The position numbers were made by a program, and so were the translations under genes. Of a stretch of DNA of 64,000 nucleotides, positions 7,541 through 33,904 are shown piece by piece. The DNA is from Methanoregula sp. Lineage in GTDB: Archaea; Halobacteriota; Methanomicrobia; Methanomicrobiales; Methanospirillaceae. Positions within the stretch are counted from its first letter, which is position 1. Each line of letters begins with the position of its first letter. The notes below the pieces were generated by a model that ran no database searches, was not told the origin of the DNA, and saw only the letters and a list, made by a program, of their open reading frames with translations. The stretch is from positions 9,217-73,216 of the forward strand of contig JAJRCF010000011.1 in NCBI GenBank assembly GCA_028679075.1, in the 5' to 3' direction.

Positions 7541-8530
7541 CTAAACTGTATATACTCCGGTTTTATACGAAGCAATGTGATCCTTCATCCATCCGATGGT
7601 CAGGTCAAGTCCGTCTTCAAGTGTAAATGACGGTTGCCAGTCCGCCAGCTCTTTTGCTGACCGGTTATCGCACAACAGTTGCATAACTTCGCTCTTCTCC
7701 GGGCGGATACGCTTCTGCTCGCACACGATTTTTGCCTTGGGGTTGACTTTTTTGACGATAATATCTGCGAGTTCCCCGATTGTCACACCGCGCCCTGAGC
7801 CTGTATTGATCGTCTTGCCCACGGTTTTCCTGCTCTCCGCGAATTTTATGAATCCGGAGACCGTGTCCGCAACATACGTGAGATCACGGACCGGTGTAAG
7901 TGAGCCGAGTTTGATCGTGTTGGCGGTGAGTGCCTGGGTGATGATCGTGGGGATCACTGCGCGTGTCGATTGGCGGGGGCCAAAAGTATTGAACGGGCGG
8001 ATTGTTGTGACTGGCAGGCCAAACGAGCAAAAAAAGGATTCGGCAATCTTATCGCCACCAATCTTGCTCGCGGAGTACGGGGACTGTCCCTGGAGCGGGT
8101 GTTTCTCATCAATGGGTGTGTATTGTGCCGTCCCGTATACTTCGCTTGTTGATGTATGGACAACGCGGGTGACATCTTCGTCAATACATGCCTGCATCAT
8201 GTTCAGGGTGCCTTTGATATTGGTATTCACGTAGGATTCCGGGGCAATATAAGAATACGGGATGCCGATGAGTGCCGCAAGGTGAAAGACATATTCTTTA
8301 TTGGCCACCGCCTTTCTTACAAACAGGGCATCCGTGACATCCCCGGCGATGACTTTCAGATTGGGTGTTGCATCCGTGTAACGTCCTTCAAGCATACCCC
8401 AGTCGTTCCGGGCATTGTAATGTACAAATGCGGTGACGTCTGCTCCCCGATGCAGTAACTCGTCAACAAGGTGACTGCCAATAAAACCCCCGGCACCAGT
8501 CACCAGTACCTGCCTGTCCTGCCATTTCAT
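7541..8530 (-). CDS. NDP-sugar 4,6-dehydratase, LegB-like
   Basis: TGAGGFIGSHL, ALIGIPYSY, STSEVYGTAQY and QGQSPYSASK, typical of the LegB subfamily. Confidence 0.8.
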   Translation of the reverse strand: MKWQDRQVLVTGAGGFIGSHLVDELLHRGADVTAFVHYNARNDWGMLEGRYTDATPNLKVIAGDVTDALFVRKAVANKEYVFHLAALIGIPYSYIAPESYVNTNIKGTLNMMQACIDEDVTRVVHTSTSEVYGTAQYTPIDEKHPLQGQSPYSASKIGGDKIAESFFCSFGLPVTTIRPFNTFGPRQSTRAVIPTIITQALTANTIKLGSLTPVRDLTYVADTVSGFIKFAESRKTVGKTINTGSGRGVTIGELADIIVKKVNPKAKIVCEQKRIRPEKSEVMQLLCDNRSAKELADWQPSFTLEDGLDLTIGWMKDHIASYKTGVYTV

Positions 8531-9618
8531 GGTGAGTCCTGTCTATATGTTTTTATGAGTTCCTGATAATCTTTCTCTGCCCGTTCCATGAGTGTTTTCC
8601 ATTGCCCATTGTTAATAACAACGTCTCTTGCTGCGATTCCCATCTGTTTCCGTAATTCCGGATCACGGGCAAGTTTGAGGAGAGCAGATGCAACTTCTTC
8701 CGGAGATCCAGGTTTGATTAAGAGTCCTGTATTGTTGTTTACCCATTCCGGAATTCCCCCAACCGATGTTGCAATGCAGGGGAGGCCGCTGGCCATTGCT
8801 TCGAGGACCGAGACCGGGGTCCCGTCGGAAATTGAAGTTGTAAGGAAAATGTCCGCCTCTCGGTAATCATGAGGCACGTCACAATATCCGGTTTTTTTCC
8901 TGAAGGTGATCCTGTCATTCAATCCCAGACTCGTGACAAGGCTTCGGATAGATGGTTCATCCGGACCTTCGCCCTTGATTGTCAGGTGGAGTCGCGGGTC
9001 TTCCTTGCATGCGAGTCCGAAGCCCCTGACCAGAGTAGCATTGTCATAGACCGGGAAAAAACCACGGTTTGAAAAAATCTCTATCCTGTCTTTGTCTCGG
9101 TTATTCCGCTCTTTATTCTGCACAAACAGGTTAGTGTCTATCCCAAAGGGAAGATACCTGACCTTGGATTCCGGAATGTTATAATCTTCGATAATGTGTT
9201 TCCTGATATCTTTCGAGACGGCATATATGAGATTTGAGGAACTGAGAACTTTTTTAGTGAAATACCGGATTAATCCGCTTTTTTGTGGAAGGATGAGTAT
9301 ATCATCGCCCCAAGCGGAGACAACGGTGGGCCGGAAATGAAGCCCCGGTAAGTGGAACCCGAATTTTGCAATAAACTGGGCATGGATAATATCAGGCCGG
9401 ATTGCCCGTATGATCTTTTTGATCTGCAGGTGGCGGGGGATGAATGCGAGATAGAGATTGTTCCATCGCGAGGATAATACATGTTCAGTTACTCCCGGTA
9501 GGATTCGGTTCATGGGATCATAGGTGATCAGGTGGACCGTGTGACCGGTATCTGCGAAATATTCGGCCCAGCGCTGGTTATGGGTGCTGCGGCCGTCAGC
9601 GATAAGGAGGATGATCAT
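8527..9618 (-). CDS. Glycosyltransferase family 4 (GT-B)
   Basis: DGTPVSVLEAMASGLPCIATSVGGIPE (Ex7E) motif. Confidence 0.93.
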   Translation of the reverse strand: MIILLIADGRSTHNQRWAEYFADTGHTVHLITYDPMNRILPGVTEHVLSSRWNNLYLAFIPRHLQIKKIIRAIRPDIIHAQFIAKFGFHLPGLHFRPTVVSAWGDDILILPQKSGLIRYFTKKVLSSSNLIYAVSKDIRKHIIEDYNIPESKVRYLPFGIDTNLFVQNKERNNRDKDRIEIFSNRGFFPVYDNATLVRGFGLACKEDPRLHLTIKGEGPDEPSIRSLVTSLGLNDRITFRKKTGYCDVPHDYREADIFLTTSISDGTPVSVLEAMASGLPCIATSVGGIPEWVNNNTGLLIKPGSPEEVASALLKLARDPELRKQMGIAARDVVINNGQWKTLMERAEKDYQELIKTYRQDSP

Positions 9619-9716: not shown

Positions 9717-11150
9717 TTAGATTACCCACTTGATTTTCACTGTTTTCAAGATATCTTCCCGTATTTGTGAATTGATTATGAAGAGGACTAGCAGATACAC
9801 CACAGTTCCAAGGCCGACCAGTGTTGCAGTGGTAAGAAAGTTTTGGGTAAGGAATATGGTTGCCGGTAAAATGACAACCGTCATAATCCCTGTTGCGATA
9901 AAGATATCCTTTATTGTTTTGATTTCGATGTAAACCGGAATGATCTTATTGAGATAATATCTGCAGATGATTGTGCATATAATGGCATTTGAAAGCGATG
10001 CCGCAGCAGCTCCGGCCAATCCCCATACTGGAACAAGGATGAATAGCAAGGGAATGTTAATAGCGATCCCGATGAAAAGTCCGTAGAACTGGTGTTTCAC
10101 ATGACCTGTTGCCATTAAAAAATTTGAATAGAGCTGGAATAGAGACTGCACTACCCGGACCCCGATAATTATTACAAGCGCCGTTGCACCAACTGCAAAA
10201 GATGAACCATATACATAATACAACAAGCGTTTTCCCAGAATCGCGCCCCCGATCAGCATGGGAATGGCAAGAATGAGCGCGTATGATGTTGCCCGGGAGA
10301 GGGCGATGGTTATGGCATTCCAGTCACCCGTTGACTTCCATCGGCTGACTTTTACACTCAACGTGTTACAGAGAGCGGTACTGATAAAAAGGGCAAATGC
10401 TGAGAATGTCCAACAAATCCCGAAAATTCCTACATCCTCTATGGACATGAAATATGCAATGATGAGCGGGTTCGTATTGTCGAATAAAATCGTGCAGGTT
10501 GTTGAAAGGAATGCCCAGCTCGAAAACGAGAAGATATTCTTTACATGCGACCAGTTGAATTCTTTCAGATGGTAGTCTATATATTTTATAAAGATAACAA
10601 TCTCCGTCAGCATTCCTGCGATGAGGCCTCCGATCAACCCGTAGATCTGAAATCCCAGAAAAACAGCGATAACCTGGATAACAATACGAATAACGTTGTC
10701 TATCAGACTGACCGAGGCTGCAAGACCCAGTCGGTTGCTGGCGCTGATGGAGGTACCAAGGGAGTTAATTACTGTTGAAATTCCCAGAACGGCAATAAGA
10801 GTCCAGATCAATCCTGTTTTATCAAGATCTCCAAAATGATTGCTGAATACTCCCATTACCGCTGCTACGATAATCCAGAGTAATACCCGGATTATTAAGC
10901 CGGTTGTGAAATATTCATCCGGGTCCTTACCCTGGCATATATAATATGATGTCGCATATCCGACCCCCAAATCGATAAACAGCCCTGCAATTGCAAAAAA
11001 TGAAAGAAATAAGAAATATTGCCCCAGAATGCCCGGCCCGATCCAGTGGGCATAAAATACCGTGGCAAGGAACCCGATGAGGGTCAAACCTATGGATGAT
11101 ATAAGGTACATCGTGCCATGACGCTGGACTTCAAGTTCTTTTTCAGACAT
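9717..11150 (-). CDS. Oligosaccharide flippase (Wzx/MOP family)
   Basis: 477 aa with more than 10 hydrophobic segments; GPGILGQY, DLGVGYA and WGLAGAAAAS patterns. Confidence 0.88.
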   Translation of the reverse strand: MSEKELEVQRHGTMYLISSIGLTLIGFLATVFYAHWIGPGILGQYFLFLSFFAIAGLFIDLGVGYATSYYICQGKDPDEYFTTGLIIRVLLWIIVAAVMGVFSNHFGDLDKTGLIWTLIAVLGISTVINSLGTSISASNRLGLAASVSLIDNVIRIVIQVIAVFLGFQIYGLIGGLIAGMLTEIVIFIKYIDYHLKEFNWSHVKNIFSFSSWAFLSTTCTILFDNTNPLIIAYFMSIEDVGIFGICWTFSAFALFISTALCNTLSVKVSRWKSTGDWNAITIALSRATSYALILAIPMLIGGAILGKRLLYYVYGSSFAVGATALVIIIGVRVVQSLFQLYSNFLMATGHVKHQFYGLFIGIAINIPLLFILVPVWGLAGAAAASLSNAIICTIICRYYLNKIIPVYIEIKTIKDIFIATGIMTVVILPATIFLTQNFLTTATLVGLGTVVYLLVLFIINSQIREDILKTVKIKWVI

Positions 11151-14495: not shown

Positions 14496-15548
14496 GTGGC
14501 TATAGTATCTGAAACCCCTTCAAATCAGGTGTCTCCATGGCATGGTCCCCTTGTCTCCATATGTATTCCCACTTATAACCGGGCAGATCTGATTACGACT
14601 GCCATTGAGAGCGCCTTAAGCCAGTCATATCGCAATATTGAGGTCCTTGTTGTGGACAATGCATCAACAGATTCAACGAATAAAGTAATTGCCCGTTATA
14701 ATGATGAACGGCTTCGTTATGTAAAAAACGAGAAAAACCTTGGCCTTTTCGGAAATTTTAATCGTTGTATTGAACTTGCCGGTGGTAAGTATATTCATAT
14801 TCTTCATTCGGATGATTGTATAGACCGGAAATTCACGGAGACCTGCGTTGATTTTTTAGAGGCCCATCCTGATGTAGCCATGACATTTGGTTCAGTTGAG
14901 CCATTCGTCAACAGCGGCGAGAGAAAAAATCGTCAATCGTCACCTCCGGTTATTTACCCGGTGCCCGAGGGATTCAGGAAAACACTGGAAGCCCGTAATT
15001 TCATAAGCTGCCCGACGGTTATGATGCGCAAGGACGTGTATGATTCTTATGGATATTATTCGCTTGAATATCCATATTCCGGAGATTTCTATCATTGGCT
15101 TCGTATTACCCGGCACTTCTCTGTGGCGTCCGTCCCGGATGCCAGACTCTATTACCGTACCGGTGATCATTCGGAGTCTTTCCTGCTGTTGTTTAAAACA
15201 CCCCTGGGATATATCGATATGATAAAGATCTATGTTCGTATCATCGATGAACTGGGTGAAGATCGGAGATTCTACCAGCGTGAACTTAACGCTGCATGTC
15301 AGCGACATATGCGTGATTGCCTGTTTGCAGGTATTGCCCGATATGAATCCATGACCGGGTATTCCTCCCTGATCTTTATTGGTTTTGCATTAAGCATGTG
15401 GTCCCTTATGAAACCCCAGTCAGTATCAGAGTGGATAAATAAAACCGGGAATTTTTTCCTGATTAGCGCAATAGCCTGTTTAACACTCGTTCCCGGGGGG
15501 CAATACATAACGAGAAAAATTTTCAGACTCGATACGAAAGGCTACTAA
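14496..15548 (+). CDS. Glycosyltransferase family 2 (GT-A)
   Basis: VSICIPTYNR, VVDNASTD and ILHSDD (DxD); hydrophobic C-terminus. Confidence 0.93.
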   Translation: MAIVSETPSNQVSPWHGPLVSICIPTYNRADLITTAIESALSQSYRNIEVLVVDNASTDSTNKVIARYNDERLRYVKNEKNLGLFGNFNRCIELAGGKYIHILHSDDCIDRKFTETCVDFLEAHPDVAMTFGSVEPFVNSGERKNRQSSPPVIYPVPEGFRKTLEARNFISCPTVMMRKDVYDSYGYYSLEYPYSGDFYHWLRITRHFSVASVPDARLYYRTGDHSESFLLLFKTPLGYIDMIKIYVRIIDELGEDRRFYQRELNAACQRHMRDCLFAGIARYESMTGYSSLIFIGFALSMWSLMKPQSVSEWINKTGNFFLISAIACLTLVPGGQYITRKIFRLDTKGY

Positions 15549-21195: not shown

Positions 21196-22257
21196 TTAAC
21201 CTGATTTTTCAATGGAAGTATCCGAATTGAAAGACTCTAAAATTTTTTCTGCGGTACGCTTCACCCCGTTTCCATCAACTTTTTGTATGGAAATTGTCGA
21301 CATCTCCTTGCATCTGGTTGGATTTGACACCAGATCGTTTATCGAATCCGCAATTTTTTCAGGAGAAATCCGTGCAAAATTTCCCAATGAGATCATCATT
21401 CCCTCTTGTACAAAAGACGATGCTGATTCGGCATGATCATCCGAAAGGCATAAAAACACCGCGACAACGCCCTGTGATGCCAGCTCATATGCAGTAACAC
21501 CGAACGATGCCACTGCAATATCCGCATTTCTCATGATATCAGCCATGTTTACGACATTATTCAGGACCTGGTAGTGATGTCGTGCATTCTTTAATAAATC
21601 CAGAAGGGCATCGTGATGGAAAAATGCAGGCCCGGTTATCACCTTGACATCAAATTCAGCGTCCAGCATCTCCAGTGCCTGAATTGCCGTGAGGGTCATT
21701 CGCTGAGGATCACTCCCCCCCATTGTAACAAGGATCACTGGCCTGAGATGGCGGGGCTTATCCTTCTTGACAGAAAATTCCGGCCTGATTAGGACCCATT
21801 CCCACCCGGAGAACAGTTTTCCTTTGAACCCGGCCCACTCCATCCGTTTAATCTGGGGGATCGGGGGATAAAAGGCAAGATCTGCAAGCAATCTCCGGTC
21901 GCTGATATCATCAATGGAAATGGTTTTTATACCTCTTTTTTTTATTTCCCTTACCAGTGCCAGGGGGAAATCGTCACGGATGTCCAGGATGAACCCCCAT
22001 GGCTGGTATTCGTCAATAATGCCCATAATCCATGAAAAATAATCAAAACGCATATCATTCTTTTCGGGTGTAAAAACACGGTAATTATGTTTTCTAATGA
22101 GATCAATTCCCTCCATCCCTTCCCGGACCGCAAACGCAATTTCACAGGAATGAACTGATCGCAATTCATCAGCAAGAGCAAGACATCGGACCGTATGTCC
22201 CATCCCCACCCCGGGCGAACCGTCACAGCGAATGAGGATGCGGCAGAGAGTCGTCAT
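21196..22257 (-). CDS. pseG: UDP-2,4-diacetamido-2,4,6-trideoxy-beta-L-altropyranose hydrolase (PseG/SpsG-like)
   Basis: RCDGSPGVGMGHTVRCLALA, TMGGSDP and MRNADIAV; pse gene context. Confidence 0.8.
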   Translation of the reverse strand: MTTLCRILIRCDGSPGVGMGHTVRCLALADELRSVHSCEIAFAVREGMEGIDLIRKHNYRVFTPEKNDMRFDYFSWIMGIIDEYQPWGFILDIRDDFPLALVREIKKRGIKTISIDDISDRRLLADLAFYPPIPQIKRMEWAGFKGKLFSGWEWVLIRPEFSVKKDKPRHLRPVILVTMGGSDPQRMTLTAIQALEMLDAEFDVKVITGPAFFHHDALLDLLKNARHHYQVLNNVVNMADIMRNADIAVASFGVTAYELASQGVVAVFLCLSDDHAESASSFVQEGMMISLGNFARISPEKIADSINDLVSNPTRCKEMSTISIQKVDGNGVKRTAEKILESFNSDTSIEKSG

Positions 22258-23207
22258 TTCACCGGCCAGTTGCTGGGATTCAGTAAGAATGCATCCTGCA
22301 GAGCAAGATCCCTAGCTTCTCTCACCATTGATTCAGAAAATGGGCCGGATTCACTGACGCCTAATGCCTCAAGGAGTTCCTCACTCGTACGAATCCCAAC
22401 CAGCACACTTGATACTTCCGGTGAAGCTATGCAGAAACGAACTGCCACTCCAGGTAATTTTTCCCAGGTACCTGCCAATGTGTCCCTGCACATGAGTGCC
22501 GCTGCTTTCAGTGCAGACAACTCCGGGGGCAACCATTCGGATTTACAGGTTAAGACTCCTTTCAGAAGAGCAGATCGGACAATTATTCCGATACCGGCCT
22601 TCTTTGCGGCCGGGAAGACGTGCGCGGCCATCCGCTGGTCAAGGAGATTGTATGCCACCTGGAGCACGTCGAAACATCCCGCCTCAATTACGGCCAGCGC
22701 TTCCGCTTCAGTATATACCGAAGCCCCAATAAAATGAATGATTCCTTCATCTTTTGCCCTGAGAAGAAATTTGGCCATAGCCCCGTCATTAATTACCGGC
22801 AGAGTCGCATTATGTATCTGAACGATATCCAGATAATCCCGCTTGAGATTTTTCATACTGGATGCAAGTGAGGCATCAATGGCTGCAGATAACTCATTTC
22901 CCTTCCGGGCTTCACCCCCGGCACCCGGTGGAATGGAAACTTTTGTTGCAATGTAGCAATCGGAACGTTCTCCAATTGCCTCTCCAAGACATAACTCACT
23001 GGTTCCATAATTGGGGGCTGTATCAAAGAAATTGATCCCTGCATCAGCTGCCTTGCGAAGCAGCTGAATCACTTCCAGTTCTTCAGGACGACCGAAATTT
23101 CCCGGAACTTCTATTCCATAGTCCACGCCGAGGGATACCGTGCCGAACGAGATCGTTGATACGGATAGTCCGGTCCGTCCGAGTTTTTTATAGAACATCG
23201 GGAACAT
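22254..23207 (-). CDS. Aldo/keto reductase
   Basis: LGRTGLSVSTISFG, GINFFDTAPNYG, IATK and LKRDYLDIVQIH. Confidence 0.9.
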   Translation of the reverse strand: MFPMFYKKLGRTGLSVSTISFGTVSLGVDYGIEVPGNFGRPEELEVIQLLRKAADAGINFFDTAPNYGTSELCLGEAIGERSDCYIATKVSIPPGAGGEARKGNELSAAIDASLASSMKNLKRDYLDIVQIHNATLPVINDGAMAKFLLRAKDEGIIHFIGASVYTEAEALAVIEAGCFDVLQVAYNLLDQRMAAHVFPAAKKAGIGIIVRSALLKGVLTCKSEWLPPELSALKAAALMCRDTLAGTWEKLPGVAVRFCIASPEVSSVLVGIRTSEELLEALGVSESGPFSESMVREARDLALQDAFLLNPSNWPVK

Positions 23208-23215
23208 CCATCCAT

Positions 23216-24529
23216 TCAGGTTAACCGGTAAAATCCGCTTCTCTGTGGCGATCCTTTCAGAAGACTCCGGACCGATCCTTTTTTATGGGCATCTGCAATC
23301 CGGGAGAAGGCATCCTTCGTGACCGATATATAGGCATCAATATGTTTTTTCGTATGAGCGAATGATGGTTTAAACTGGGTGTAGGCAAGATATCTCTTTT
23401 CGAGCATAATCTGCGTAAACAGCGTGGCCATCTCTAATTTTTCATCGCCTTCAATGGAGAAATGGTTCAACGTGGACAGGCCGCTGATATGGACGGGTAA
23501 ACCCGCCTCGTCAGCTGCGTTCTGCCACCCAACCATAACTGAATTGCCGATGGATATAATGTGATCATCGACATGCTTCTCCTGGTATTTCCTGATCGTT
23601 GCGAGTGCAGCGGCAGGTCCGATGCGTTCCGTCCAGTTAGTGCTGCTGATAAATGTTGACTGGGCTGATTCCATGACTTCCGCGGTTCCTACTACCGCTG
23701 CCATTGCATACCCGTTGGACATCGCCTTTGCGAACACAGCAATATCCGGGTTGACTCCCAATGTCTGGTGAATTCCCCCGGGACACATCCGGAACCCGGT
23801 AGTTATCTCGTCGAATACCAGCACAGCATCCTGTTCCCTGGCGATTTTCTTGACCTTTTCGAGGAATCCCGGTTCCGGCGTCTGGTCCCTGCGGGGTTCC
23901 ATGACAATGGCTGCAATGCGGCCGTTATTTCTCGCCACAATCTCTTCCAGTTGTTCGATGTGGTTGTAGTGGAAGGGCAGGGCACTCCCCAGAAGCCCCC
24001 GCGGCACACCGGAGGGTTCGAGACCTGGCATGAGGTGTCCGTCCAAGGCATGATCCTCACTGATATTTGCAGCCAGGTACCAGTCGTACCACCCGTGATA
24101 GCCACAGAATGCAATGATATCCTTGCCGGTATGTGCCCGGGCGATCCTGACCGCTACTGCCATTGCCTCCCCCCCGGATCGGGCATACCGGACCATATTT
24201 GCCCATGGATGCAGCGAGCAGAGAAGTTCAGCCAGTTCCACTTCTTCTGGTGCATTCAGGGTACACTGTACACCATTTCTGAGTGCCGCAATCACAGCCC
24301 TGTCAACATCTGGGTCAGCATAGCCGAGGATGCAGGCGCCAACCCCCATGATACTCATGTCCGTGTAGGTAATCCCTGCAAGATCTGTAACCTTCACACC
24401 TTTCGCTTTTGCATAATAGGCCGGCCAGAGGTCCGGTAAAAACATTTCAGGACGTTTGGAAAGTAGTTGCGTGCCACCGGGAATCAGTTTCTTGCCTTTC
24501 TTGTATAATTCCTGACCATCCATTCTCAT
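23216..24529 (-). CDS. Class III PLP aminotransferase (GSA-aminomutase-like, not HemL)
   Basis: FCGYHGW, IAAIVMEP, VFDEITTGFR and PDIAVFAKAMSNG (PLP lysine). Confidence 0.88.
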   Translation of the reverse strand: MRMDGQELYKKGKKLIPGGTQLLSKRPEMFLPDLWPAYYAKAKGVKVTDLAGITYTDMSIMGVGACILGYADPDVDRAVIAALRNGVQCTLNAPEEVELAELLCSLHPWANMVRYARSGGEAMAVAVRIARAHTGKDIIAFCGYHGWYDWYLAANISEDHALDGHLMPGLEPSGVPRGLLGSALPFHYNHIEQLEEIVARNNGRIAAIVMEPRRDQTPEPGFLEKVKKIAREQDAVLVFDEITTGFRMCPGGIHQTLGVNPDIAVFAKAMSNGYAMAAVVGTAEVMESAQSTFISSTNWTERIGPAAALATIRKYQEKHVDDHIISIGNSVMVGWQNAADEAGLPVHISGLSTLNHFSIEGDEKLEMATLFTQIMLEKRYLAYTQFKPSFAHTKKHIDAYISVTKDAFSRIADAHKKGSVRSLLKGSPQRSGFYRLT

Positions 24530-25290
24530 TCACCTTTCAGTAATTCCTGATCTTTCTTTAATGATTTCAGATATCCTTCATTTCGAAGAATGTCGGCATT
24601 GATGTTCACGAGATCCGGTTCTTTTTCCAGGAGCCGGAGAATATCTTCAGCAAGGAAAATTTCTTTCTCCTTATAGAGCCGTGTGTATATTTTCCTGATA
24701 AACTGAATGTCTTCCGGCTCATCAACAGTCCACCTCATATGGCCGAGGTTGCTGAATTTTTTAAACTGACCCAGTTTGAATTTTTCCGGGTGATTGATAA
24801 TATACGGTCCCACGTGTTCCCGTTCAGAAGGAAGTTTTGCATTATTCCATGCATCCCTGAGCGCTGAATAGGAAAACACGGTGACATCCAGCCCATCAGG
24901 GAATTCCCCGGATAACCAATATGCGTCAAAGTGGCCTTTAAAAAACCCAGTAATCGTCTCATCAACAATTACAGGATCAATCACGGGACAATCCGCAGTG
25001 ATTCTTACGACCGGATCGGCATTAAATTTCGTTGCAGCCTGGTAGTAACGGTCGAGAACATCGTCCTCGCTTCCTGCAAACGATCGTACGCCAGCGGATT
25101 CTGCCAGATCGACGATTGCCCTGTCCTCGGGACGGTTGGATGTTGCAACTACAATCTGCTGGACTGTTTTACACTTTTTGATCCGGTTTATGACATGCCA
25201 TACCAAAGGTTTTCCGGAGAGCTCCATCAGGACTTTTCCCGGTAACCTGCTGGATCCCATCCGTGCCTGGATGATTACGGTTGTTGTCAT
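24526..25290 (-). CDS. SpsF-type cytidylyltransferase (probable CMP-nonulosonate synthetase)
   Basis: IIQARMGSSRLPGKVL, GSEDDVLDRY, VRITADCP, EREHV and RWTVDEPED. Confidence 0.85.
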   Translation of the reverse strand: MTTTVIIQARMGSSRLPGKVLMELSGKPLVWHVINRIKKCKTVQQIVVATSNRPEDRAIVDLAESAGVRSFAGSEDDVLDRYYQAATKFNADPVVRITADCPVIDPVIVDETITGFFKGHFDAYWLSGEFPDGLDVTVFSYSALRDAWNNAKLPSEREHVGPYIINHPEKFKLGQFKKFSNLGHMRWTVDEPEDIQFIRKIYTRLYKEKEIFLAEDILRLLEKEPDLVNINADILRNEGYLKSLKKDQELLKGE

Positions 25291-26150
25291 GAGGCATCTC
25301 TGAATGATTCACGAATTTTCATAACCGGTCGTAAGCCGTCGGAGGGATCCGCTCTCCAGTCGCGCTCCACCATCTCGTTGGCATCGGGTTTCTTCTCCCC
25401 GGTTCCATCCGAAGAGATCCCGGTATGTATTGTAGTGATTACATTCTTCATCTCTTCAGGAAGCCAGCAATGCCCCGTTGAATATTCCTCTCCTTTCCCA
25501 TCGAGATCAAGGTGGAACTCAATCATCGTTGCCCCCCAGTGATGAACTGCGCGGTAAATGACAGGAGGAGATACGGTGTGGTCTGACCATCCGACAGAAC
25601 CTCCAAATACTTTTCTGAGGGTTTCCATTGCTGCCAGGTTGCATTGCCCGGGAGGTGTTGGATATACCGAAGCACAGTGGAGCAAGGTGAGATCCTTGCA
25701 ACCGGCCTTTTTGAGAACAGTTACTGCATCTCTGACTTCATCGAGAGTTGCCATTCCCGTTGAGAGGACTACCGGTTTTCCTGTTTTCGCACAGGAAACA
25801 AGAAGATCTTTCCAGAGCAGTTCGTAGGATGCGATTTTATAGAATTCCACGAAGGGCTCCAGTTCATGGACCGCTTCAAGATAAAACGGAGTGCAGGAAA
25901 AAAGGATGTCATGTTTCCTGCACTTGTCGGCAAGATAGGGCAGGAAAGAAACCGGCAGTTCCCATTGTTTTCTTTTCCTGATATCCTCACGCTTTCGGAT
26001 GATTTCGGGTGCAAACAATTCATCAATCTTAAATAACTGGAATTTTACTGACTCGCAGCCGATATCTGCTGCCGTTTCAATAAACCGGAAACATCTCTCC
26101 AGATTCTGGTTGTGATTACTGGATACTTCTGCAATAAAATGTGGTTTCAT
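25287..26150 (-). CDS. pseI: Nonulosonic acid synthase (PseI/NeuB family), short form without the C-terminal SAF domain
   Basis: IAEVSSNHNQ, VKFQLF, YKIASYE, VLSTGMA, LLHCASVYP, GWSDHT and IEFH; only 287 aa. Confidence 0.85.
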   Translation of the reverse strand: MKPHFIAEVSSNHNQNLERCFRFIETAADIGCESVKFQLFKIDELFAPEIIRKREDIRKRKQWELPVSFLPYLADKCRKHDILFSCTPFYLEAVHELEPFVEFYKIASYELLWKDLLVSCAKTGKPVVLSTGMATLDEVRDAVTVLKKAGCKDLTLLHCASVYPTPPGQCNLAAMETLRKVFGGSVGWSDHTVSPPVIYRAVHHWGATMIEFHLDLDGKGEEYSTGHCWLPEEMKNVITTIHTGISSDGTGEKKPDANEMVERDWRADPSDGLRPVMKIRESFRDAS

Positions 26151-27319
26151 GATCCGTCCACCCCGAGAATTTTACATATTGCTGATATCACACGGTTAAC
26201 ATCCTCATCATCCATCCTCGGAAAAATCGGGAGTGAGAGTTCATGGTGATAATAATTCTCCGCATGAGGGAACTGGCCTTCCCTGAAGCCAAAATGATTC
26301 TGGTAGTACGGCTGCTGATGGATGGGGATATAATGTACCTGAGTGAGGATGCCCTGTTCTTTGAGTTTTGACATCATGCCCTTCCGGTCGCATCCGGTAC
26401 ATTGTATCGGGTAGATATGGAATGCATGCCGGGAATCCGGCCACCGAGGCCTGGGAGGGATAATGATGCCGGGCAGATCCTGGAATACCTGATCATACGC
26501 GTCAGCGATCTCATTCCGGCGTGTTATAAACCCCTCCAGTTTACTGAATTGGGAAATACCGAGAGCGCACTGGATATCCGTTATCCGGTAGTTATATCCA
26601 AGTTCCTGCATCTCGTAATACCACGACCCTTCATTACGGGTGAGTTTCTTCGGATCCTTTGTGGTCCCATGACTCCGTAAAAGTCGGAGCCGTTCGGTAT
26701 ACTCATCGCTGTCCGTGACAATAATACCGCCCTCTCCTGTTGTAATATGTTTGACAGGATGGAAGGAAAACATGGTCATATCTGCTTCCTTCCCAACGGA
26801 CATTCCGTACCGTCGTCCTCCTAAAGCATGAGCGGCATCTTCGACTATCACCAGGTCATGCCTGTCGGCAATATCCCGGATCTCACGCATATCCATAGGA
26901 TATCCTGCCATGTCAACCGGCGCAATCACCTTTGTGCGATCCGTGATGGCATGCTCGATGAGTTGTGTATTGATGCAGTATGTAGCCGGGTCAATATCAA
27001 CGAATACCGGAATACCTCCAAGGTACACTGCGGAATTTGGCGTTGCCACGAATGAAATGGGGGTGGTGATCACTTCATCGCCCGAAGATACACCTGCAGC
27101 AAACATCGCCCCGTGGAGAGCCGATGTACCTGAATTAAATGCCACAGCATATCGTGTGCCGGCATATTTGGCGATCTTATCTTCGAACTGTTCAATCAAC
27201 GGTCCCTGTGTGAGCCAGTCGCCTTTCAACACTGCGCACACTGCGTTGATATCGTTGTCATCCACCCATTGTGATCCATAGGGAATGGTTTTCATCGGCA
27301 TCTGTCCGGACTTTTGCAT
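26147..27319 (-). CDS. pseC: UDP-4-amino-4,6-dideoxy-N-acetyl-beta-L-altrosamine transaminase (DegT family)
   Basis: IPYGSQW, WLTQGP, EDAAHALG, FSFHPVKHITTGEGG, LGYNYRITDIQCALG and QVHYIP. Confidence 0.9.
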   Translation of the reverse strand: MQKSGQMPMKTIPYGSQWVDDNDINAVCAVLKGDWLTQGPLIEQFEDKIAKYAGTRYAVAFNSGTSALHGAMFAAGVSSGDEVITTPISFVATPNSAVYLGGIPVFVDIDPATYCINTQLIEHAITDRTKVIAPVDMAGYPMDMREIRDIADRHDLVIVEDAAHALGGRRYGMSVGKEADMTMFSFHPVKHITTGEGGIIVTDSDEYTERLRLLRSHGTTKDPKKLTRNEGSWYYEMQELGYNYRITDIQCALGISQFSKLEGFITRRNEIADAYDQVFQDLPGIIIPPRPRWPDSRHAFHIYPIQCTGCDRKGMMSKLKEQGILTQVHYIPIHQQPYYQNHFGFREGQFPHAENYYHHELSLPIFPRMDDEDVNRVISAICKILGVDGS

Positions 27320-27320
27320 C

Positions 27321-28301
27321 TCAATAGGAGGACAAGTTAATCATGCGATTGAAATCCTTTTTGTCAAGCCACTGGGTATTGTTATCGCTGCTGTACCTGA
27401 AACCTTCCGGCAGGCTCCGACCTCCGGTTCTGCCATTTTTCCAGAATTTCAGTTCAGGTTCGATCACAAAGAAGGTATCATACTCTTTCGTGTGGCGGGC
27501 CTCGTCTTCTGTAAGAAGGATCTCATGGAGCTTCTCTCCGGGCCGGATACCGATAGTCTCGATCTTTGCGTCAGGTGCCATTGCATGGGCCAGATCAATC
27601 ACTTTCATGCTGGGGATTTTCGGGACAAAGACTTCCCCGCCGGTCATGATGGGAAGACATTTTCTGACAAACTGGACGCCTTCTTCCAGTGTCAGCCAGA
27701 ACCGGGTCATGCGTTCGTCGGTAATGGTAAGTCGCCCGGATTTTTTTTGTTCGAGAAACAGCGGGACAACGCTTCCCCGGCTTCCTACAACGTTTCCGTA
27801 CCGTACACAGGAAAACTTGGTGGGGTGGATATCTCCTGAATAGGAATTTCCCTGCATAAACAATTTTTCTGCAACCATTTTTGTGGATCCATAGAGATTC
27901 ACCGGGTGAACTGCCTTGTCTGTGCTGAGCGCGAGGACCCGATCGACATTGTTGTCAATAGCGGTGTCGATGATATTGATAGAACCATTAATATTGGTCT
28001 TCACCGCTTCAATAGGATTGTATTCACAGGCAGGTACCTGCTTGAGAGCAGCTGCATGAACAACAATATCTACACCATTCATCGCTCGGGAAAGCCGTTC
28101 TTTATCCCTTACATCTCCGATAAAAAACCTGATCCGATCATCCGGAAACAGTTTTTCCGTTTCATACTGGAGCATTTCACCCCGGGAATAGATACGAATG
28201 CTTTTGGGATTGTCTTCTCGTAAAAGAGTTTTCAGGAACGCTCTTCCGAATGATCCTGTACCCCCGGTGATGAGTATTGTCTTATCGTTGAAATATGACA
28301 T
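27321..28301 (-). CDS. pseB: UDP-N-acetylglucosamine 4,6-dehydratase (inverting)
   Basis: ITGGTGSFG, HAAALKQVPACEYNP, LSTDKA, NLYGSTK, RYGNVVGSRGSV, MTRFW and GIRPGEKLHE. Confidence 0.93.
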   Translation of the reverse strand: MSYFNDKTILITGGTGSFGRAFLKTLLREDNPKSIRIYSRGEMLQYETEKLFPDDRIRFFIGDVRDKERLSRAMNGVDIVVHAAALKQVPACEYNPIEAVKTNINGSINIIDTAIDNNVDRVLALSTDKAVHPVNLYGSTKMVAEKLFMQGNSYSGDIHPTKFSCVRYGNVVGSRGSVVPLFLEQKKSGRLTITDERMTRFWLTLEEGVQFVRKCLPIMTGGEVFVPKIPSMKVIDLAHAMAPDAKIETIGIRPGEKLHEILLTEDEARHTKEYDTFFVIEPELKFWKNGRTGGRSLPEGFRYSSDNNTQWLDKKDFNRMINLSSY

Positions 28302-28682
28302 TGCTAATAGATCTACTTATACAGAGTTTAAGATTTCGACTTACCTGATGTGTTCATTACGGGATCTGTATGAAACGCACTGAAATCAAGTCCCCCTCTT
28401 CGGTGCAGTTTTCAAAGAGATCTGCCCGATAGATTCACATTTCCTGTCGGATGTGCTGATATCTGTAGGTGTATAGGCTGAAATTTCTCTCTATTTCGCC
28501 GGAATAAGGATACTTGATTTTTGGCATCTGAGATCAGACATCTTATATCCTGTGAAGAAAAATGAATTCTTGAATGCGGACTCAGTTCCAGTGAATTATA
28601 ACAAACGGATATCGATAATATTTATTATGCATCTCATCTCATTCCATCTTCTGACAAACGCTAAAATGAAAACGTATTTGAA

Positions 28683-30629
28683 ATGCAGATCAGAGACCGG
28701 TGCGTAATGGTAAAAACACTATTTTTTTTAGAAGACCCCAAAAAAATTGATTGGGTCATTCAGGATAGTGTGAAAAGCACAGGGCAATCAGTCTTTATTT
28801 CACTCTCTGCGACTGCATCATATGCGTATGAAAGGTACCAGATCCCTTATAAATCGATCCGGGACTTCGGTGGCGGGGAGGAACGATACCAGCAGGGTTT
28901 GGAAAATTTTCAAAGATTTGATCGGATAGTGACAATTCTTGATAAGGAACTAACTCTTCATCATAACAATCTTACACTGACACCGGCTCGTTATTCAATA
29001 TATAATCTCAAAATTCTTTTTGATACACTTTGGAATGCAATTCAAATTTTAAAACAGATTATTGATATAGAACAGCCGGATTTTATTCGTCTTTATGCAA
29101 TACCCCGGGTAAGATCCGTGAATAAGGTCTGTGTATTCTCAAACAACGAATCGATATATACCGAAGTTTTGAACATGTCTGGATGGAATGTTCAGATCGA
29201 AATAATTCAGGAAACAGAACCTGACCGTATTGATCAAGGGATTACAGGAAGAAGTTACACACGTTTTTCCCGTTTAATGGACTGGATCAAAGAACAGGAT
29301 CTTTTGTTTAATCTGGGGCTGATCAGTAAACGAGAAGGTATCGGATTGGCAACGCTGGCGTTATATTATCATATTATCGTCATGCGCCGGAACCCCGTCC
29401 TTATTTATAATAGCGGATACAATTGGGATGATTCCCTGATTGAACTCTTCCGCGAAGGGATGGTTCCGGTATACCGGATAAGGGATGAGTTCTTAACCAA
29501 TGATATTACAGATGACACGGCATCCTGCGAGGAGGTTCGTAATATATGCGGCGTTCATCCCGGAATGAGGGAATTTGATACTATCCTCGGCATCGATGTA
29601 TCCACATTCTTTTTTGAAAGGCTTTCGGAAATTGTCGGACGTGCTCTTCAGGAATCAGTAGTTGCATATACCTATGCCCGCAAAAAAATCCGACGGAAAA
29701 ACATTCAATGCCTCCTCCTCGCAGCGTGTGATACAACTATGGGTCATGCTATTGTCCAGGCAGCACATGATACAGAAATTCCCGTTGTCTCATGGCAGCA
29801 CGGAGGTGCAGGATATAGTTATCATCCGCTGATGTCATTTATTGAATTTGTCAATTCTGACTGGCATTTTGTTTTTGGGGAAGGCGTTGCCACGAGTTAC
29901 CTGTCCACCTCAAAGTGTATCGGTCTTAAGAAAATCCCCCGTTTTGTCCCCGTGGGATCGAGTTCTCTTGACATCTTTGATAGAAATAAACGAAAAACCG
30001 CGATTAAACCGGATAACGGACCGGTTGTTTATATTACTACTGCGTACCTGCGGAATATCTACATGAATTCCGGGAAAGATGACCTTGGCGTGTTTGACGA
30101 ACATCTTTGGGATATACAACAGCATATCCTCAATCTTGCGAAGAATAACCCTGATAAAGAGTTTATCATAAAATTGCATCCCACTCATATCGATAAAGAA
30201 CCCCTCAATGGGTTTGTGATTGATCATAACATACGCAATGTGAAACTTATCACCTCAGAAATGACCATACGGGAATTAACGGATATTGCCGGAATAATGA
30301 TATTTGACCTTATTTCAACGGGAATCCTACAGGTACTTACCTCAGAACTCCCAGTTTTCGTTTATCCGGGCCTGTATAAAGTCGATCCTGATCCTCTGAT
30401 GCAATTGATGAAACGTGCTTACGTGAGTTATGACAAGAATCGGTTTGTCGCCATGATCCAACAATTCATTGACGTTCATTCGGTAGATTCCTTCGATAGC
30501 GTAGATGTAAAAAATACCGATTTTCTGATAAGATACGGAACTGATCCTGTCCATCATAATAGTGCTGTTGAAGCAGTAACGGCCTTGAAAAAAATCCTGC
30601 TTCAGGAATACCCGTTTCCTCGTGAATAG
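28683..30629 (+). CDS. Large GT-B-like protein, candidate nonulosonate transferase (LIC12162-like); alternative start 28707
   Basis: WQHGG, VPVGSS, IIKLHP and DLISTG motifs resemble the HP and S/T motifs of CMP-sugar transferases. Divergent from pseB. Confidence 0.5.
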   Translation: MQIRDRCVMVKTLFFLEDPKKIDWVIQDSVKSTGQSVFISLSATASYAYERYQIPYKSIRDFGGGEERYQQGLENFQRFDRIVTILDKELTLHHNNLTLTPARYSIYNLKILFDTLWNAIQILKQIIDIEQPDFIRLYAIPRVRSVNKVCVFSNNESIYTEVLNMSGWNVQIEIIQETEPDRIDQGITGRSYTRFSRLMDWIKEQDLLFNLGLISKREGIGLATLALYYHIIVMRRNPVLIYNSGYNWDDSLIELFREGMVPVYRIRDEFLTNDITDDTASCEEVRNICGVHPGMREFDTILGIDVSTFFFERLSEIVGRALQESVVAYTYARKKIRRKNIQCLLLAACDTTMGHAIVQAAHDTEIPVVSWQHGGAGYSYHPLMSFIEFVNSDWHFVFGEGVATSYLSTSKCIGLKKIPRFVPVGSSSLDIFDRNKRKTAIKPDNGPVVYITTAYLRNIYMNSGKDDLGVFDEHLWDIQQHILNLAKNNPDKEFIIKLHPTHIDKEPLNGFVIDHNIRNVKLITSEMTIRELTDIAGIMIFDLISTGILQVLTSELPVFVYPGLYKVDPDPLMQLMKRAYVSYDKNRFVAMIQQFIDVHSVDSFDSVDVKNTDFLIRYGTDPVHHNSAVEAVTALKKILLQEYPFPRE

Positions 30630-30769
30630 TTTTATCCTGAAGAATACCCTTCGATACTGTTTTAAATACAAAATCAGGTGTCAATGTAGGGCCCTTCTAA
30701 AAGAATGATTATTTTCATTAATCTCATAGTATAATTTCGAGTTAAACTACTTTTTAACAAAACTGTAAA

Positions 30770-30842
30770 AGCCTCAGCCGTGATTTGAACACGGGACCTG
30801 CTGATTACAAGTCAGCCGCTCTGCCAACTAAGCCACTGAGGC
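30770..30842 (-). tRNA. tRNA-Thr(TGT)
   Basis: The reverse complement folds as a cloverleaf: GCCTCAG acceptor, GCTGA-CTTGTAA-TCAGC anticodon arm, CCGTG-TTCAAAT-CACGG T arm. Confidence 0.96.
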
Positions 30843-30991
30843 GCCATAGTATTTTGACGTTGGATGGTAAAAAAGATGGTGTCTGGCCCGGTAGTTTTCC
30901 CGCCATTACCCCGCAGGAAAGATCTCGATCAGCCTGATCCGGAAACATATCCAAATATCTTATACCCCCCGGCACAGACGTAGTAGTACAG

Positions 30992-32218
30992 ATGGCCCAG
31001 CTGACCGTGGATATTGGCGGAAGCCCCGGCATCAACTGCCGCGGATACTGCGAATACTGCTATTTCAAAAAAGTCAAGGGTGAAACACAACTCGGGTGCC
31101 GGTACTGCCTGCCGTTCAAGAAAGGCTGCGACTACTGCACCCGTGGCGTAAAAGAGGAGTACTCCGGGTTCAAGGACCTCCGGAGCATCGCAGACGAGAC
31201 CCTCGCGAACCTCCAGTCAAAGCAGGGCGAGATCGAACGGATTACAATAAGTGGTGGCGGTGATCCGAGCTGTTACCCGCAGTTTAAGGATCTCATCGAA
31301 CTGCTCGGCAGCACGGAAGCCCCGCTCCACATCGGGTACACGAGTGGGAAGGGTTGGGACGACCCGGCTATTGCCGATCTCCTGATTGAGAACGGGCTCA
31401 CCGAGATTTCATTTACGGTCTTTGCCACGGACCCGAGACTCCGGAAGAAGTATATGCACGACCCGACACCGGAAGCCTCCCTTGCGATCCTTGAACGGCT
31501 CTGCGGTGCGGTTGATGTGTATGCGGCAACGGTTGTCCTCCCGGGTGTGAATGACGGGAAAGTACTGGAGGAGACCTGCCGGTGGCTCCAGGACCGGGGG
31601 GCAAAGGGCCTGATCCTGATGCGGTTTGCCAATGCCATGGAGCAGGGGCTCATCCTCGGCAACGGGCCGGTCATGGGGAAGCAGAAAGTCCAGAGCGTGG
31701 AATCGTTCCGTGACATGATCACGGACCTCCGGAAAAAATTCACAATGAAAATATCCGGTACGCCACTCTGGGACCCGGAGATCGGTTCGCCGTTTGCGAT
31801 CCGTTATGAGCCAGGCCTACTCGCAAAACTCCCCCGGGTCACGAAACGGGCGAGCGTGGTCAGCGGGAGCATCGCCACGCCATTCATCGATACAATCCTT
31901 TCCGCATGCGGGTCAGAGGTCCCGGTCATTCCGGTCAAGAAAGAGATTGCCTGCCTGATCACCGCAGATGACCTCCGCGGGCTCGACCTCGCGGCTCTTG
32001 AAACCGCGGTGATCATCCCCGGCCGTGCGTTCGTGCATGATGCCGAGGCAGAAGAGATCCTCTCACGTGACGGGGTTGAGCGGTTGGTAATACGGGGGCC
32101 TGACATGCTGACTGCCGATGCCGAGACCAGTATGGGGATGACCCGCGACCAGGTGCTGGAGATGGAGATGGAAGGGTTTGCCGAATTGATCCAGATGATC
32201 AACCGGTTTGGGAAATGA
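30992..32218 (+). CDS. mmp10: Methyl-coenzyme M reductase arginine C-methyltransferase, radical SAM/cobalamin (methanogenesis marker 10)
   Basis: N-terminal DIGGSPG-x2-CRGYCEYCYF, second CxxC-x6-CxxC iron site (CRYC...CDYC) and a DUF512-like C-terminus. Confidence 0.9.
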   Translation: MAQLTVDIGGSPGINCRGYCEYCYFKKVKGETQLGCRYCLPFKKGCDYCTRGVKEEYSGFKDLRSIADETLANLQSKQGEIERITISGGGDPSCYPQFKDLIELLGSTEAPLHIGYTSGKGWDDPAIADLLIENGLTEISFTVFATDPRLRKKYMHDPTPEASLAILERLCGAVDVYAATVVLPGVNDGKVLEETCRWLQDRGAKGLILMRFANAMEQGLILGNGPVMGKQKVQSVESFRDMITDLRKKFTMKISGTPLWDPEIGSPFAIRYEPGLLAKLPRVTKRASVVSGSIATPFIDTILSACGSEVPVIPVKKEIACLITADDLRGLDLAALETAVIIPGRAFVHDAEAEEILSRDGVERLVIRGPDMLTADAETSMGMTRDQVLEMEMEGFAELIQMINRFGK

Positions 32219-32253
32219 TCCGGTAAGTCCTCACGGTACCGGGAAAAACAGTA

Positions 32254-32366
32254 TGCTGCGAGAGGGTTACGATCCCCCGATCTCCAGATCTCTCGAAGCG
32301 TGAACGCGGAATTGGTGTTCAACAACCCTATGAGTCTGGCGCCCTAACCAGCTAGGCCACCGCAGC
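32254..32366 (-). tRNA. tRNA-Met(CAT), elongator type, with a 39-nt intron at 37/38 (32290-32328)
   Basis: Acceptor GCTGCGG/TCGCAGC, D arm GCCT/GGGC, anticodon arm CCAGA-CTCATA|A-TCTGG split by the intron. T-loop is atypical (ATCGTAA). Confidence 0.88.
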
Positions 32367-32428
32367 ACAAAAGTGCATAATAAAAACGCCGTAAAAACTA
32401 TTAAAGGTTCTGACACGACAAAGCTGCG

Positions 32429-33904
32429 TCATTCCTTCTTTTGCTGGAGGTACATGTTGACCGCTGCTGTGATCGCGGCTACTTTCTTTCCCTGGTCGAA
32501 CGACCCTGCAAGGGTCTGCATACGGGTCTCCTCGTCCCGCTTGTATCGCTCGAGCGTACTTAAGATATGCTCCTCCTGCAGGAAGTGCGTGTGGGTGTTT
32601 CCCTCGATGAACTGCTGGTTGTTCATGATCGCATAATGAAGGGGGAGCGTGGTCCTGATGCCGAGGACGATATACTCCGAGATAGCTCTCCGCATCCTCA
32701 TGATCGCATCGGTACGGGTGCTGTCCCAGGCACAGAGCTTTGCGATCATCGAGTCGTAATTGGGGGGGATCGTGTATCCCATATGAATCCCGGAATCGAC
32801 CCGGATCCCGGGTCCGCCCGGTGACCGGTAGCGCACTATCTTCCCGGGATCGGCAGCGAAATTGTTGAGGGGGTCTTCGGCATTGATCCGGCATTCGATC
32901 GCATGCCCGCGGATCGAGAGATCCTTCTGCTCGAACGGGAGTGATTCACCGGCTGCTATCGCAATCTGTTGTTTGACGAGATCGACACCCGTAATGATTT
33001 CTGTGATAGTATGCTCGACCTGGAGACGGGTGTTCATCTCCATGAAGTAATAATTCCCTTCGCTGTACAGGAACTCGACCGACCCGGCATTGGTATAATC
33101 CGATGCTTCAACGACTTTGAGTGCCGATTGTGACATCCGCTCCCGCAGCTCGTTGGTCATGATCGGGGAGGGGGCCTCCTCGATCAGTTTCTGGTGCCGG
33201 CGCTGGATGGAGCACTCGCGGTCATACAGGTGGACCGCGTTCTTGTGCTCATCGGCCAGCACCTGGAACTCGATATGCCGCGGTTTGATGAGATACTTCT
33301 CGATGAAGACCGTCGCATCCCCAAATGCAGATTTTGCGATACGCTGGCTTGCCGTAACGGCTTCTTCGAGGGACTGCTCATTGTCCACGATCTGCATCCC
33401 GATGCCGCCGCCTCCCGCGCTGGCCTTGACAATGACCGGGTACCCGATCTTCGCGGCAACTTTTTTTGCCGCATCGATGTCCTTGATGCCGCTGTCAGTA
33501 CCGGGGAGCACCGGAACCCCGGCGTCCTTCATCATCTGCTTGCTGCCAATCTTGGACCCCATCGCCTTGATGGTCTTCCATTGCGGGCCGACAAACGTGA
33601 CGCTCTCGTCCTGGCAGAGCTTGGCAAACCGGTAGTTCTCTGCAAGGAACCCGTACCCGGGATGGATCGCCTCGGCACCGGACTTCTTGGCAATATCGAT
33701 GATCCGCTCCATGTTGAGGTAACTCTTGGAGGGGTGAGCCTCGCCCACATGAAATGCCTCGTCCGCGTACTTGACGTGGAGGGCATTCCTGTCCGCATCG
33801 GAATAGATCGCTACGGTCTCAATGTCAAGCTCGCGGCATGCCCGCATTACCCGGATCGCGATCTCGCCGCGGTTGGCGATTAAGAGTTTCTCAAAAAATT
33901 TCAT
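32429..33904 (-). CDS. pycA: Pyruvate carboxylase subunit A (biotin carboxylase)
   Basis: LIANRGEIA, IHPGYGFLAEN, RECSIQRRHQK, EMNTRLQVEH and YDSMIAK. Confidence 0.95.
   Translation of the reverse strand: MKFFEKLLIANRGEIAIRVMRACRELDIETVAIYSDADRNALHVKYADEAFHVGEAHPSKSYLNMERIIDIAKKSGAEAIHPGYGFLAENYRFAKLCQDESVTFVGPQWKTIKAMGSKIGSKQMMKDAGVPVLPGTDSGIKDIDAAKKVAAKIGYPVIVKASAGGGGIGMQIVDNEQSLEEAVTASQRIAKSAFGDATVFIEKYLIKPRHIEFQVLADEHKNAVHLYDRECSIQRRHQKLIEEAPSPIMTNELRERMSQSALKVVEASDYTNAGSVEFLYSEGNYYFMEMNTRLQVEHTITEIITGVDLVKQQIAIAAGESLPFEQKDLSIRGHAIECRINAEDPLNNFAADPGKIVRYRSPGGPGIRVDSGIHMGYTIPPNYDSMIAKLCAWDSTRTDAIMRMRRAISEYIVLGIRTTLPLHYAIMNNQQFIEGNTHTHFLQEEHILSTLERYKRDEETRMQTLAGSFDQGKKVAAITAAVNMYLQQKKE

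Follow-up and report, generated by a model that had tools for sequence, protein, structure and literature searches.

Nonulosonic acids, among them pseudaminic acid (Pse), legionaminic acid (Leg), and neuraminic acid (Neu), are found on archaeal S-layer and archaellin glycans. Two transferases of Tannerella forsythia, Tanf_01245 (for Pse5Am7Gra) and TFUB4_00887 (for a Leg derivative), are the proteins around which the model NF046086 (BFO_1060 family glycosyltransferase) was built; their deletion mutants lose the terminal Pse or Leg derivative of the O-glycan, and the cytidine monophosphate (CMP)-activated sugar persists (PMC5420450). An HP motif has been described for the Tannerella enzymes and for sialyltransferases (PMC5420450, PMC7439481), and for the glycosyltransferase B (GT-B)-type sialyltransferases of families GT38, GT52, and GT80, the passages of these papers that cite Freiberger et al. 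2007 give a D/E-D/E-G motif together with HP. In our literature search, KpsS1 of Acinetobacter baumannii (GT118) was the sole biochemically defined glycan pseudaminyltransferase found (PMC12887879). A further group, the uncharacterized LIC12162 family (TIGR04331; PF27859), is encoded in bacterial nonulosonate and O-antigen loci, e.g., of Leptospira and Herbaspirillum (PMC6679464). For Archaea, the search found no nonulosonate transferase, and a 2018 paper called the archaeal Leg transferase unidentified (PMC6137143). Here, we describe an open reading frame (ORF) in a 64,000-nucleotide stretch of DNA from Methanoregula sp. (hereafter, the window; assembly GCA_028679075.1, contig JAJRCF010000011.1, positions 9,217 to 73,216). 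The product of this ORF (28683..30629, + strand), labeled P0001, is probably a GT-B glycosyltransferase that moves a CMP-activated, pseudaminic-acid-type nonulosonate onto a growing surface glycan.

In its presumed mode of action, P0001 comes closest to the Tannerella Pse and Leg transferases; its likeness to the GT-B sialyltransferases with an HP motif is looser. It shares with the BFO_1060 family a GT-B/TagB-type predicted fold, an HP motif in the C-terminal nucleotide lobe, and a gene position beside a CMP-nonulosonate locus. However, the Tannerella proteins are 442 to 445 amino acids long, whereas P0001 has 640 residues with an extra N-terminal domain of approximately 225 amino acids, does not clearly contain the D/E-D/E-G motif, and comes from an archaeal host. 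Its overall build, a protein of the approximately 600-amino-acid type in which an N-terminal extension precedes a GT-B body, and its position near NeuA/B/C-type genes are those of the LIC12162 family. With the GT-B sialyltransferases it has in common the fold, a presumed CMP-sugar donor, an HP motif that follows strand 1 of the C-lobe, a downstream Ser/Thr pair, and no need for a DxD motif; it differs from them in lacking a match to GT38 or any other Pfam glycosyltransferase family and in having, as candidate base, a His in a WQHG loop rather than Asp or Glu. KpsS1 shares the proposed type of reaction, from CMP-Pse to a glycan, but belongs to the retaining KpsS/KpsC/WbbB lineage (PF05159-like); P0001 has no PF05159 match, and 2 of 36 relatives have marginal ones.

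The preliminary description of this locus, drawn from the DNA letters, had proposed a candidate archaeal nonulosonate (pseudaminyl) transferase, which presupposes a GT-B fold. That proposal is now supported by the fold, by genomic linkage to NeuB, and by natural fusions to CMP-sugar cytidylyltransferases. An AlphaFold2 model of P0001, built from a 36-sequence alignment (predicted local distance difference test score [pLDDT], 90; predicted template modeling score [pTM], 0.89), has a complete GT-B fold at residues 234 to 648 and an additional N-terminal domain. This accessory domain (residues 9 to 233; 28707..29381, + strand) consists of a Rossmann-like half-domain, a long helical hairpin (residues 65 to 130), and a helical linker. 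The GT-B N-lobe (residues 234 to 425; 29382..29957, + strand) carries the sequence GYNWDD (residues 245 to 250) and the deeply conserved PV..WQHG (residues 367 to 374), and the C-lobe (residues 426 to 648 plus the stop codon; 29958..30629, + strand) is the nucleotide-binding lobe. P0001 has no membrane span and is probably a soluble or peripheral cytoplasmic protein; the alternative of a membrane protein was rejected, because the sole hydrophobic peak (residues 535 to 553; Kyte-Doolittle value, 1.8) corresponds in the model to a strand and a helix in the core of the C-lobe.

The 648-residue ORF, its divergent orientation relative to pseB, and the QHGG, KLHP, and ST motifs in its C-terminal half were all confirmed as first described. 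Alignments show that these motifs are conserved down to about 22% identity and do not arise by chance. All 36 homologs at 26 to 65% identity retain W371, Q372, H373, G374, K497, D542, and T546; H499 is kept in 35 of them and P500 in 33. Conservation extends to 46 remoter relatives at 20 to 26% identity (H373, 44/46; K497, 45/46; H499, 34/46; P500, 39/46; D542, 43/46; T546, 45/46), in which the surviving core comprises P367-V368-x-x-[WY]-Q372-H373-G374, G399, G425-S426, Y450, D472, Q479, K497-L-H499-P500, D542-x-P-[ST]-T546, and R578. The WQHGG motif (residues 371 to 375; 29793..29807, + strand) contains H373, the candidate catalytic base. KLHP (residues 497 to 500; 30171..30182, + strand) is an HP-type motif immediately C-terminal to β-strand 1 of the C-lobe, and DLIST (D-x-x-S-T, with D-x-P-S/T-T in the wider family; residues 542 to 546; 30306..30320, + strand) occupies a strand-to-helix turn of the same lobe, where it may contact ribose or phosphate. 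These two motifs appear to sit where GT-B enzymes that use CMP-sugars are expected to have their HP motif and the Ser/Thr pair that binds phosphate, judging from published motif descriptions (PMC5420450, PMC7439481) and general knowledge. Other features are more restricted: GYNWDD is confined to the close subfamily, and the DDS at residues 249 to 251 (first D in 34/36 and second in 33/36 of the close subfamily), at best a possible counterpart of D/E-D/E-G, is lost in the remoter relatives.

The preliminary description had also expected homologs to co-occur with nonulosonate genes, and they do. Of 201 sampled genomes from the class, 18 contain the close family (E ≤ 1e-10) and 73 contain NeuB; 17 of the 18 close-family genomes encode NeuB, and in 15 it lies on the same contig, 0.8 to 15 kb away (within 16 kb). 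A wider profile matches 33 genomes, 30 of them with NeuB and 25 with NeuB at 16 kb or less. Naive Fisher tests gave p values of 1e-7 for the close family and 1e-12 for the wider profile, both overstated because the genomes are related; physical adjacency to NeuB is stronger evidence than these values. Such adjacency recurs in 14 further loci with sufficient flank, in which NeuB lies within 10 kb, usually together with a gene for a PF02348 protein. Loci with this adjacency are found in Methanosarcina, Methanoperedens, Methanolobus, Hadarchaeum, Methanomicrobiales metagenome-assembled genomes, and other metagenome contigs. In Methanosarcina, the family is represented by P0096.

Protein fusions point in the same direction. 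Five remote relatives (P0136, P0188, P0191, P0201, and P0204; 842 to 863 amino acids) carry an N-terminal PF02348 domain (E 3e-14 to 8e-29) before a whole P0001-like body (match to P0001, E 2e-66 to 1.8e-31). PF02348 is the NeuA/KdsB/PseF type of cytidylyltransferase, which makes CMP-ulosonic acids, and fusion of a CMP-activating enzyme to a P0001-like body is expected if that body consumes the CMP-sugar. The core motifs are largely retained in the fusions, with single substitutions in P0188 (RLHP) and P0191 (KIHQ). The two fusion genes that were located (L047:6715-9258 and L048:10001-12592) both lie 0.1 to 1.2 kb downstream of NeuB in nonulosonate operons, one of them closing a PseB/PseC/PseG-like operon. 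Our literature search found no mention of PF02348-LIC12162-like fusions. They give a strong hint of function for LIC12162-like proteins across the superfamily, bacteria included.

Several observations weigh against a nonulosonate transferase. To our knowledge, no member of the P0001 clade has been assayed, nor has any member of TIGR04331. P0001 matches NF046086 at 30.7 bits (E 1.7e-7; residues 470 to 539; cut-off, 200) and TIGR04331 at 17.2 bits (E 0.0017; residues 430 to 558; cut-off, 225), reaching neither cut-off, and both weak matches fall in the C-terminal lobe. NF046086 also weakly matches five unrelated control genomes; its match therefore indicates superfamily kinship, not function. 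The structural neighbors of the GT-B body are not transferases at the top of the list: the best Foldseek matches are UDP-N-acetylglucosamine (UDP-GlcNAc) 2-epimerases (E 1e-10), the KLHP histidine aligns with a histidine in the epimerase "LHLNP" stretch, and none of the listed top fold matches is a sialyltransferase structure, which still leaves room for similarity to one. For a minority of homologs (L024, L026, L028, and L034), the flanking 10 kb contain no NeuB; of these loci, L024 and L034 are short. L026, whose family member is 61% identical to P0001, lies in a glycan island among genes for CDP- and nucleoside diphosphate (NDP)-hexoses, with the NeuB of that genome at a contig end. At L028:284-1078, in Methanoregula sp. 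SKADARSKE-2, the homolog adjoins a DDE transposase where the chromosome record begins, and 148 kb separate it from NeuB and PseG of that genome, a placement that suggests insertion sequence-mediated rearrangement. One genome with a homolog, G087, which is truncated at a contig end, has no detected NeuB. Finally, Bacillus subtilis SpsB, a TagB-domain protein with DEG and HP motifs encoded beside CMP-Leg genes, is dispensable for transferring Leg, as a knockout showed (PMC7439481); genomic association and motifs are not proof.

Searches against family models place P0001 near known groups but outside their thresholds. A Pfam scan (E ≤ 10) gave no credible match, only a spurious one to BRCT_3 (E 0.08), and searches of the PDB with two family profiles returned no solved structure of any family member, only UDP-GlcNAc 2-epimerase at E 0.006 and 0.03. 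An exhaustive HMMER search recovered 651 cluster representatives at E ≤ 0.001 (106 at E ≤ 1e-30), mostly 600 to 670 amino acids long, the closest being named Methanoregula or Methanospirillum; a search with the C-lobe only (residues 425 to 625) yielded no named families, just the close relatives already recovered. Among the 36 aligned relatives, 35 match NF046086 (best E 1.9e-15), 28 match TIGR04331, and 18 match TIGR04396, all far under the cut-offs, with sporadic Pfam matches to PF04464, PF05159, and GT99. The 46 remoter relatives behave likewise (best NF046086 E 4.4e-18), and none of the 82 comes near the TIGR04331 cut-off (best E 1e-14). PF27859 (LIC12162) is recorded for relatives at 60 to 63% identity (P0012, P0014, and P0018) and for many remoter ones; the precomputed records list no PF27859 match for P0001's own cluster. 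The nearest ESM Atlas clusters are labeled LIC12162, Glyphos_transf, Capsule_synth, and Epimerase_2, of which the first three are families that use cytidine-nucleotide donors, and an Atlas structural neighbor with PF27859 superimposes with a template modeling (TM) score of 0.81 over 590 residues. By these profile and cluster relationships, P0001 belongs to a divergent, mainly archaeal sister clade in the LIC12162/BFO_1060/TagB-like GT-B group and is not a member of TIGR04331 proper. The earlier suggestion of an unclassified GT family holds insofar as P0001 itself scores far under the TIGR04331 and NF046086 cut-offs, but the protein falls within the TIGR04331/PF27859/NF046086 sphere and is best filed as an archaeal member of an already catalogued, biochemically uncharacterized LIC12162-like kind.

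P0001 could instead be a TagF/TarL-like phosphotransferase that uses CDP-alditol, CDP-glycerol, or another cytidine-diphosphate donor to add a phospho-alditol, rather than the nonulosonate, to a glycan. Matches to TarL/TagF and weak PF04464 matches in 3 of the 36 relatives are consistent with such an activity, which we nonetheless judge unlikely: PF04464 matches neither P0001 nor anything else in the genome, and the linkage is specifically to NeuB, so that the genomic partner is a CMP-ulosonate pathway rather than a CDP-alditol pathway. The fused cytidylyltransferase domain is likewise PF02348, the CMP-ulosonic acid type, and not the TagD/IspD type, which makes CDP-glycerol or CDP-ribitol.

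Slightly less probable still is a role for P0001 in making the nonulosonate, either as a nucleotide-sugar hydrolase/2-epimerase (PseG, LegG, or NeuC-like) or as another nucleotide-sugar-modifying GT-B enzyme. The epimerase-like fold speaks for such a role, as do four archaeal genomes (G201 to G204, those of L031, L037, L040, and L038) that have a family member beside nonulosonate genes and no PseG or Epimerase_2 (NeuC/LegG) gene at E ≤ 1e-5, so that the nucleotide-sugar hydrolase step is unaccounted for in these genomes of unknown completeness. NeuB lies within 10 kb in L031, L037, and L040, and the only nonulosonate neighbor in L038 is a cytidylyltransferase at the contig edge. However, PseG is present in 11 of the 18 close-family genomes, and the window holds both P0001 and a PseG-like gene; substitution for PseG as a general function of the family was rejected on these grounds. 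PF02350 does not match P0001, and H373, a His family-wide, occupies the loop position aligned to the Glu-containing "EAG" of UDP-GlcNAc 2-epimerase in a low-scoring HMMER alignment of low confidence. The fusion partner is the CMP-activating last enzyme of the pathway rather than an early one, and the extra 230-amino-acid domain is not expected of a hydrolase acting before NeuB. Least likely of all, P0001 would be a GT-B enzyme that draws on an ordinary UDP-, GDP-, or dTDP-sugar and merely shares the variable glycan island, an explanation that fits the several NDP-hexose pathways of the island and the NeuB-distant L026 locus but not the absence of a GT1, GT4, or GT28 Pfam signature in P0001, the K-x-H-P and D-x-x-S-T motifs and weak family matches pointing to cytidine-nucleotide enzymes, or the cytidylyltransferase fusions and NeuB linkage across distant lineages.

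If P0001 is a CMP-nonulosonate transferase, its action may be pictured as follows. The enzymes of the divergent operon would make the CMP-activated Pse-type sugar in the cytoplasm, and the C-lobe would bind the CMP moiety via K497, H499 of the HP motif, D542, and S545/T546. In the interdomain cleft, H373 of the N-lobe WQHG loop could act on the acceptor hydroxyl as catalytic base or help to place that base. That hydroxyl probably belongs to a dolichol-phosphate-linked oligosaccharide, which the GT2 and GT4 enzymes of the island would assemble; the flippase encoded at 9717-11150 would afterward flip the product, and one of two AglB homologs would transfer it onto protein. The extra N-terminal domain may function in acceptor or membrane recognition or in oligomerization. 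The sequence and model data do not discriminate between an inverting and a retaining outcome.

A broader proposal, which we put forward more tentatively, is that the P0001 clade and its fused relatives constitute a CMP-nonulosonate transferase family of Archaea and Bacteria (approximately 650 clusters at 50% identity). P0001 might then be the first identifiable archaeal pseudaminyl-type transferase, capping dolichol-linked glycans, with a His-based WQHG loop replacing the D/E-D/E-G base and with a hitherto undescribed N-terminal module, Rossmann-like with a hairpin, that recognizes the acceptor or the membrane. The P0001 family is a concrete candidate for the archaeal enzyme, being present in 17 of the 73 NeuB genomes of the sampled class (30 of 73 for the wider superfamily). 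The family has been catalogued before, and the assignment is in line with specialist expectation. For the chemoenzymatic synthesis of Pse and Leg, defined transferases of these two sugars are wanted as tools.

The P0001 gene has a guanine-plus-cytosine (GC) content of 41%. Its true start is probably the ATG at 28707 (M9), giving a protein of 640 amino acids, because the gene-caller/database copy and the ESM Atlas record open at M9 and homolog alignments open at residues 9 to 11. Some homolog matches contain in-frame stops, but these fall close to the expected start or upstream of it, at positions 2 and 18 of the alignment; that of L028 represents read-through upstream of the start, and L038 also carries one. 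pseB (27321-28301, − strand; TIGR03589, 503.8 bits) and P0001 lie on opposite strands and are therefore divergent, across a spacer of approximately 400 bp (28302..28706) in which an AT-rich, TATA-like stretch was read by eye near 28614-28631.

Beyond the spacer, profile matches define an operon predicted to provide the donor sugar (21196..28301, − strand). Starting at the spacer, its genes encode PseB, PseC (501.5 bits), a NeuB/PseI-like synthase, a PF02348 (CTP_transf_3) cytidylyltransferase, a class III aminotransferase, an aldo-keto reductase, and a PseG-like protein of the GT28 fold (21196-22257, − strand; 143.6 bits against a cut-off of 153.55). The synthase (25287-26150, − strand) has only 287 amino acids, is without a SAF domain, and scores under both equivalog cut-offs (NeuB, 181.8 against 399.65; PseI, 176.4 against 340.25). 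Short NeuB forms also occur next to P0001-family members in L043 and L045. Downstream of P0001 are genes for Mmp10 (582.8 bits) and pyruvate carboxylase subunits, which mark the host as a methanogen.

P0001 and its operon belong to a low-GC glycan island at 4 to 31 kb of the window (46% GC, compared with 56% outside). In addition to several NDP-hexose pathways, the island encodes a GT4 enzyme (8527-9618, − strand), the flippase mentioned above, and a GT2 enzyme (14496-15548, + strand), and the genome carries two AglB (STT3) genes. P0001 had been described as the only candidate in the island for using the CMP-nonulosonate. The island also contains the GT4, GT2, and PseG-like proteins, and in that respect the claim was too strong; it stands in that none of these has cytidine-nucleotide-type motifs or family matches. 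The genome offered no competing candidate either: a profile scan gave no matches to the GT38 (PF07388), KpsC/S, or TagF models, and its single match of the MptE/Maf fold is a 221-amino-acid ORF on another contig.

Some minor features of the island and the family were also recorded. At the island edge (window 2654-5857), a 466-amino-acid ORF with no Pfam match and a weak VimE-deacetylase-like match (E 6e-10) precedes a gene pair for ATP-grasp and PHP phosphoesterase proteins; in L021, a pair of this kind directly adjoins NeuB. In L041 (metagenome contig k141_1213998), the position next to Mmp10 and the biotin carboxylase that corresponds to window 21196-33904 is taken by another nonulosonate cluster (GFO_IDH, GT4, and a SAF-domain NeuB), which has P0077 as its own P0001-family member. 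The arrangement resembles a conserved site on the chromosome whose glycan cassette can be exchanged. In the control genomes of Methanocaldococcus jannaschii and Methanosarcina acetivorans, PF07388 (GT38 polysialyltransferase) found matches, as did TIGR04331 at weak scores. Lastly, the family has a second long form (P0082, P0086, P0090, and P0126; 870 to 882 amino acids) with an N-terminal extension of approximately 230 amino acids without a Pfam match. One such gene, at L042:10001-12649, lies between carbamoyltransferase and B12-radical-SAM genes, beside a pse-like operon.

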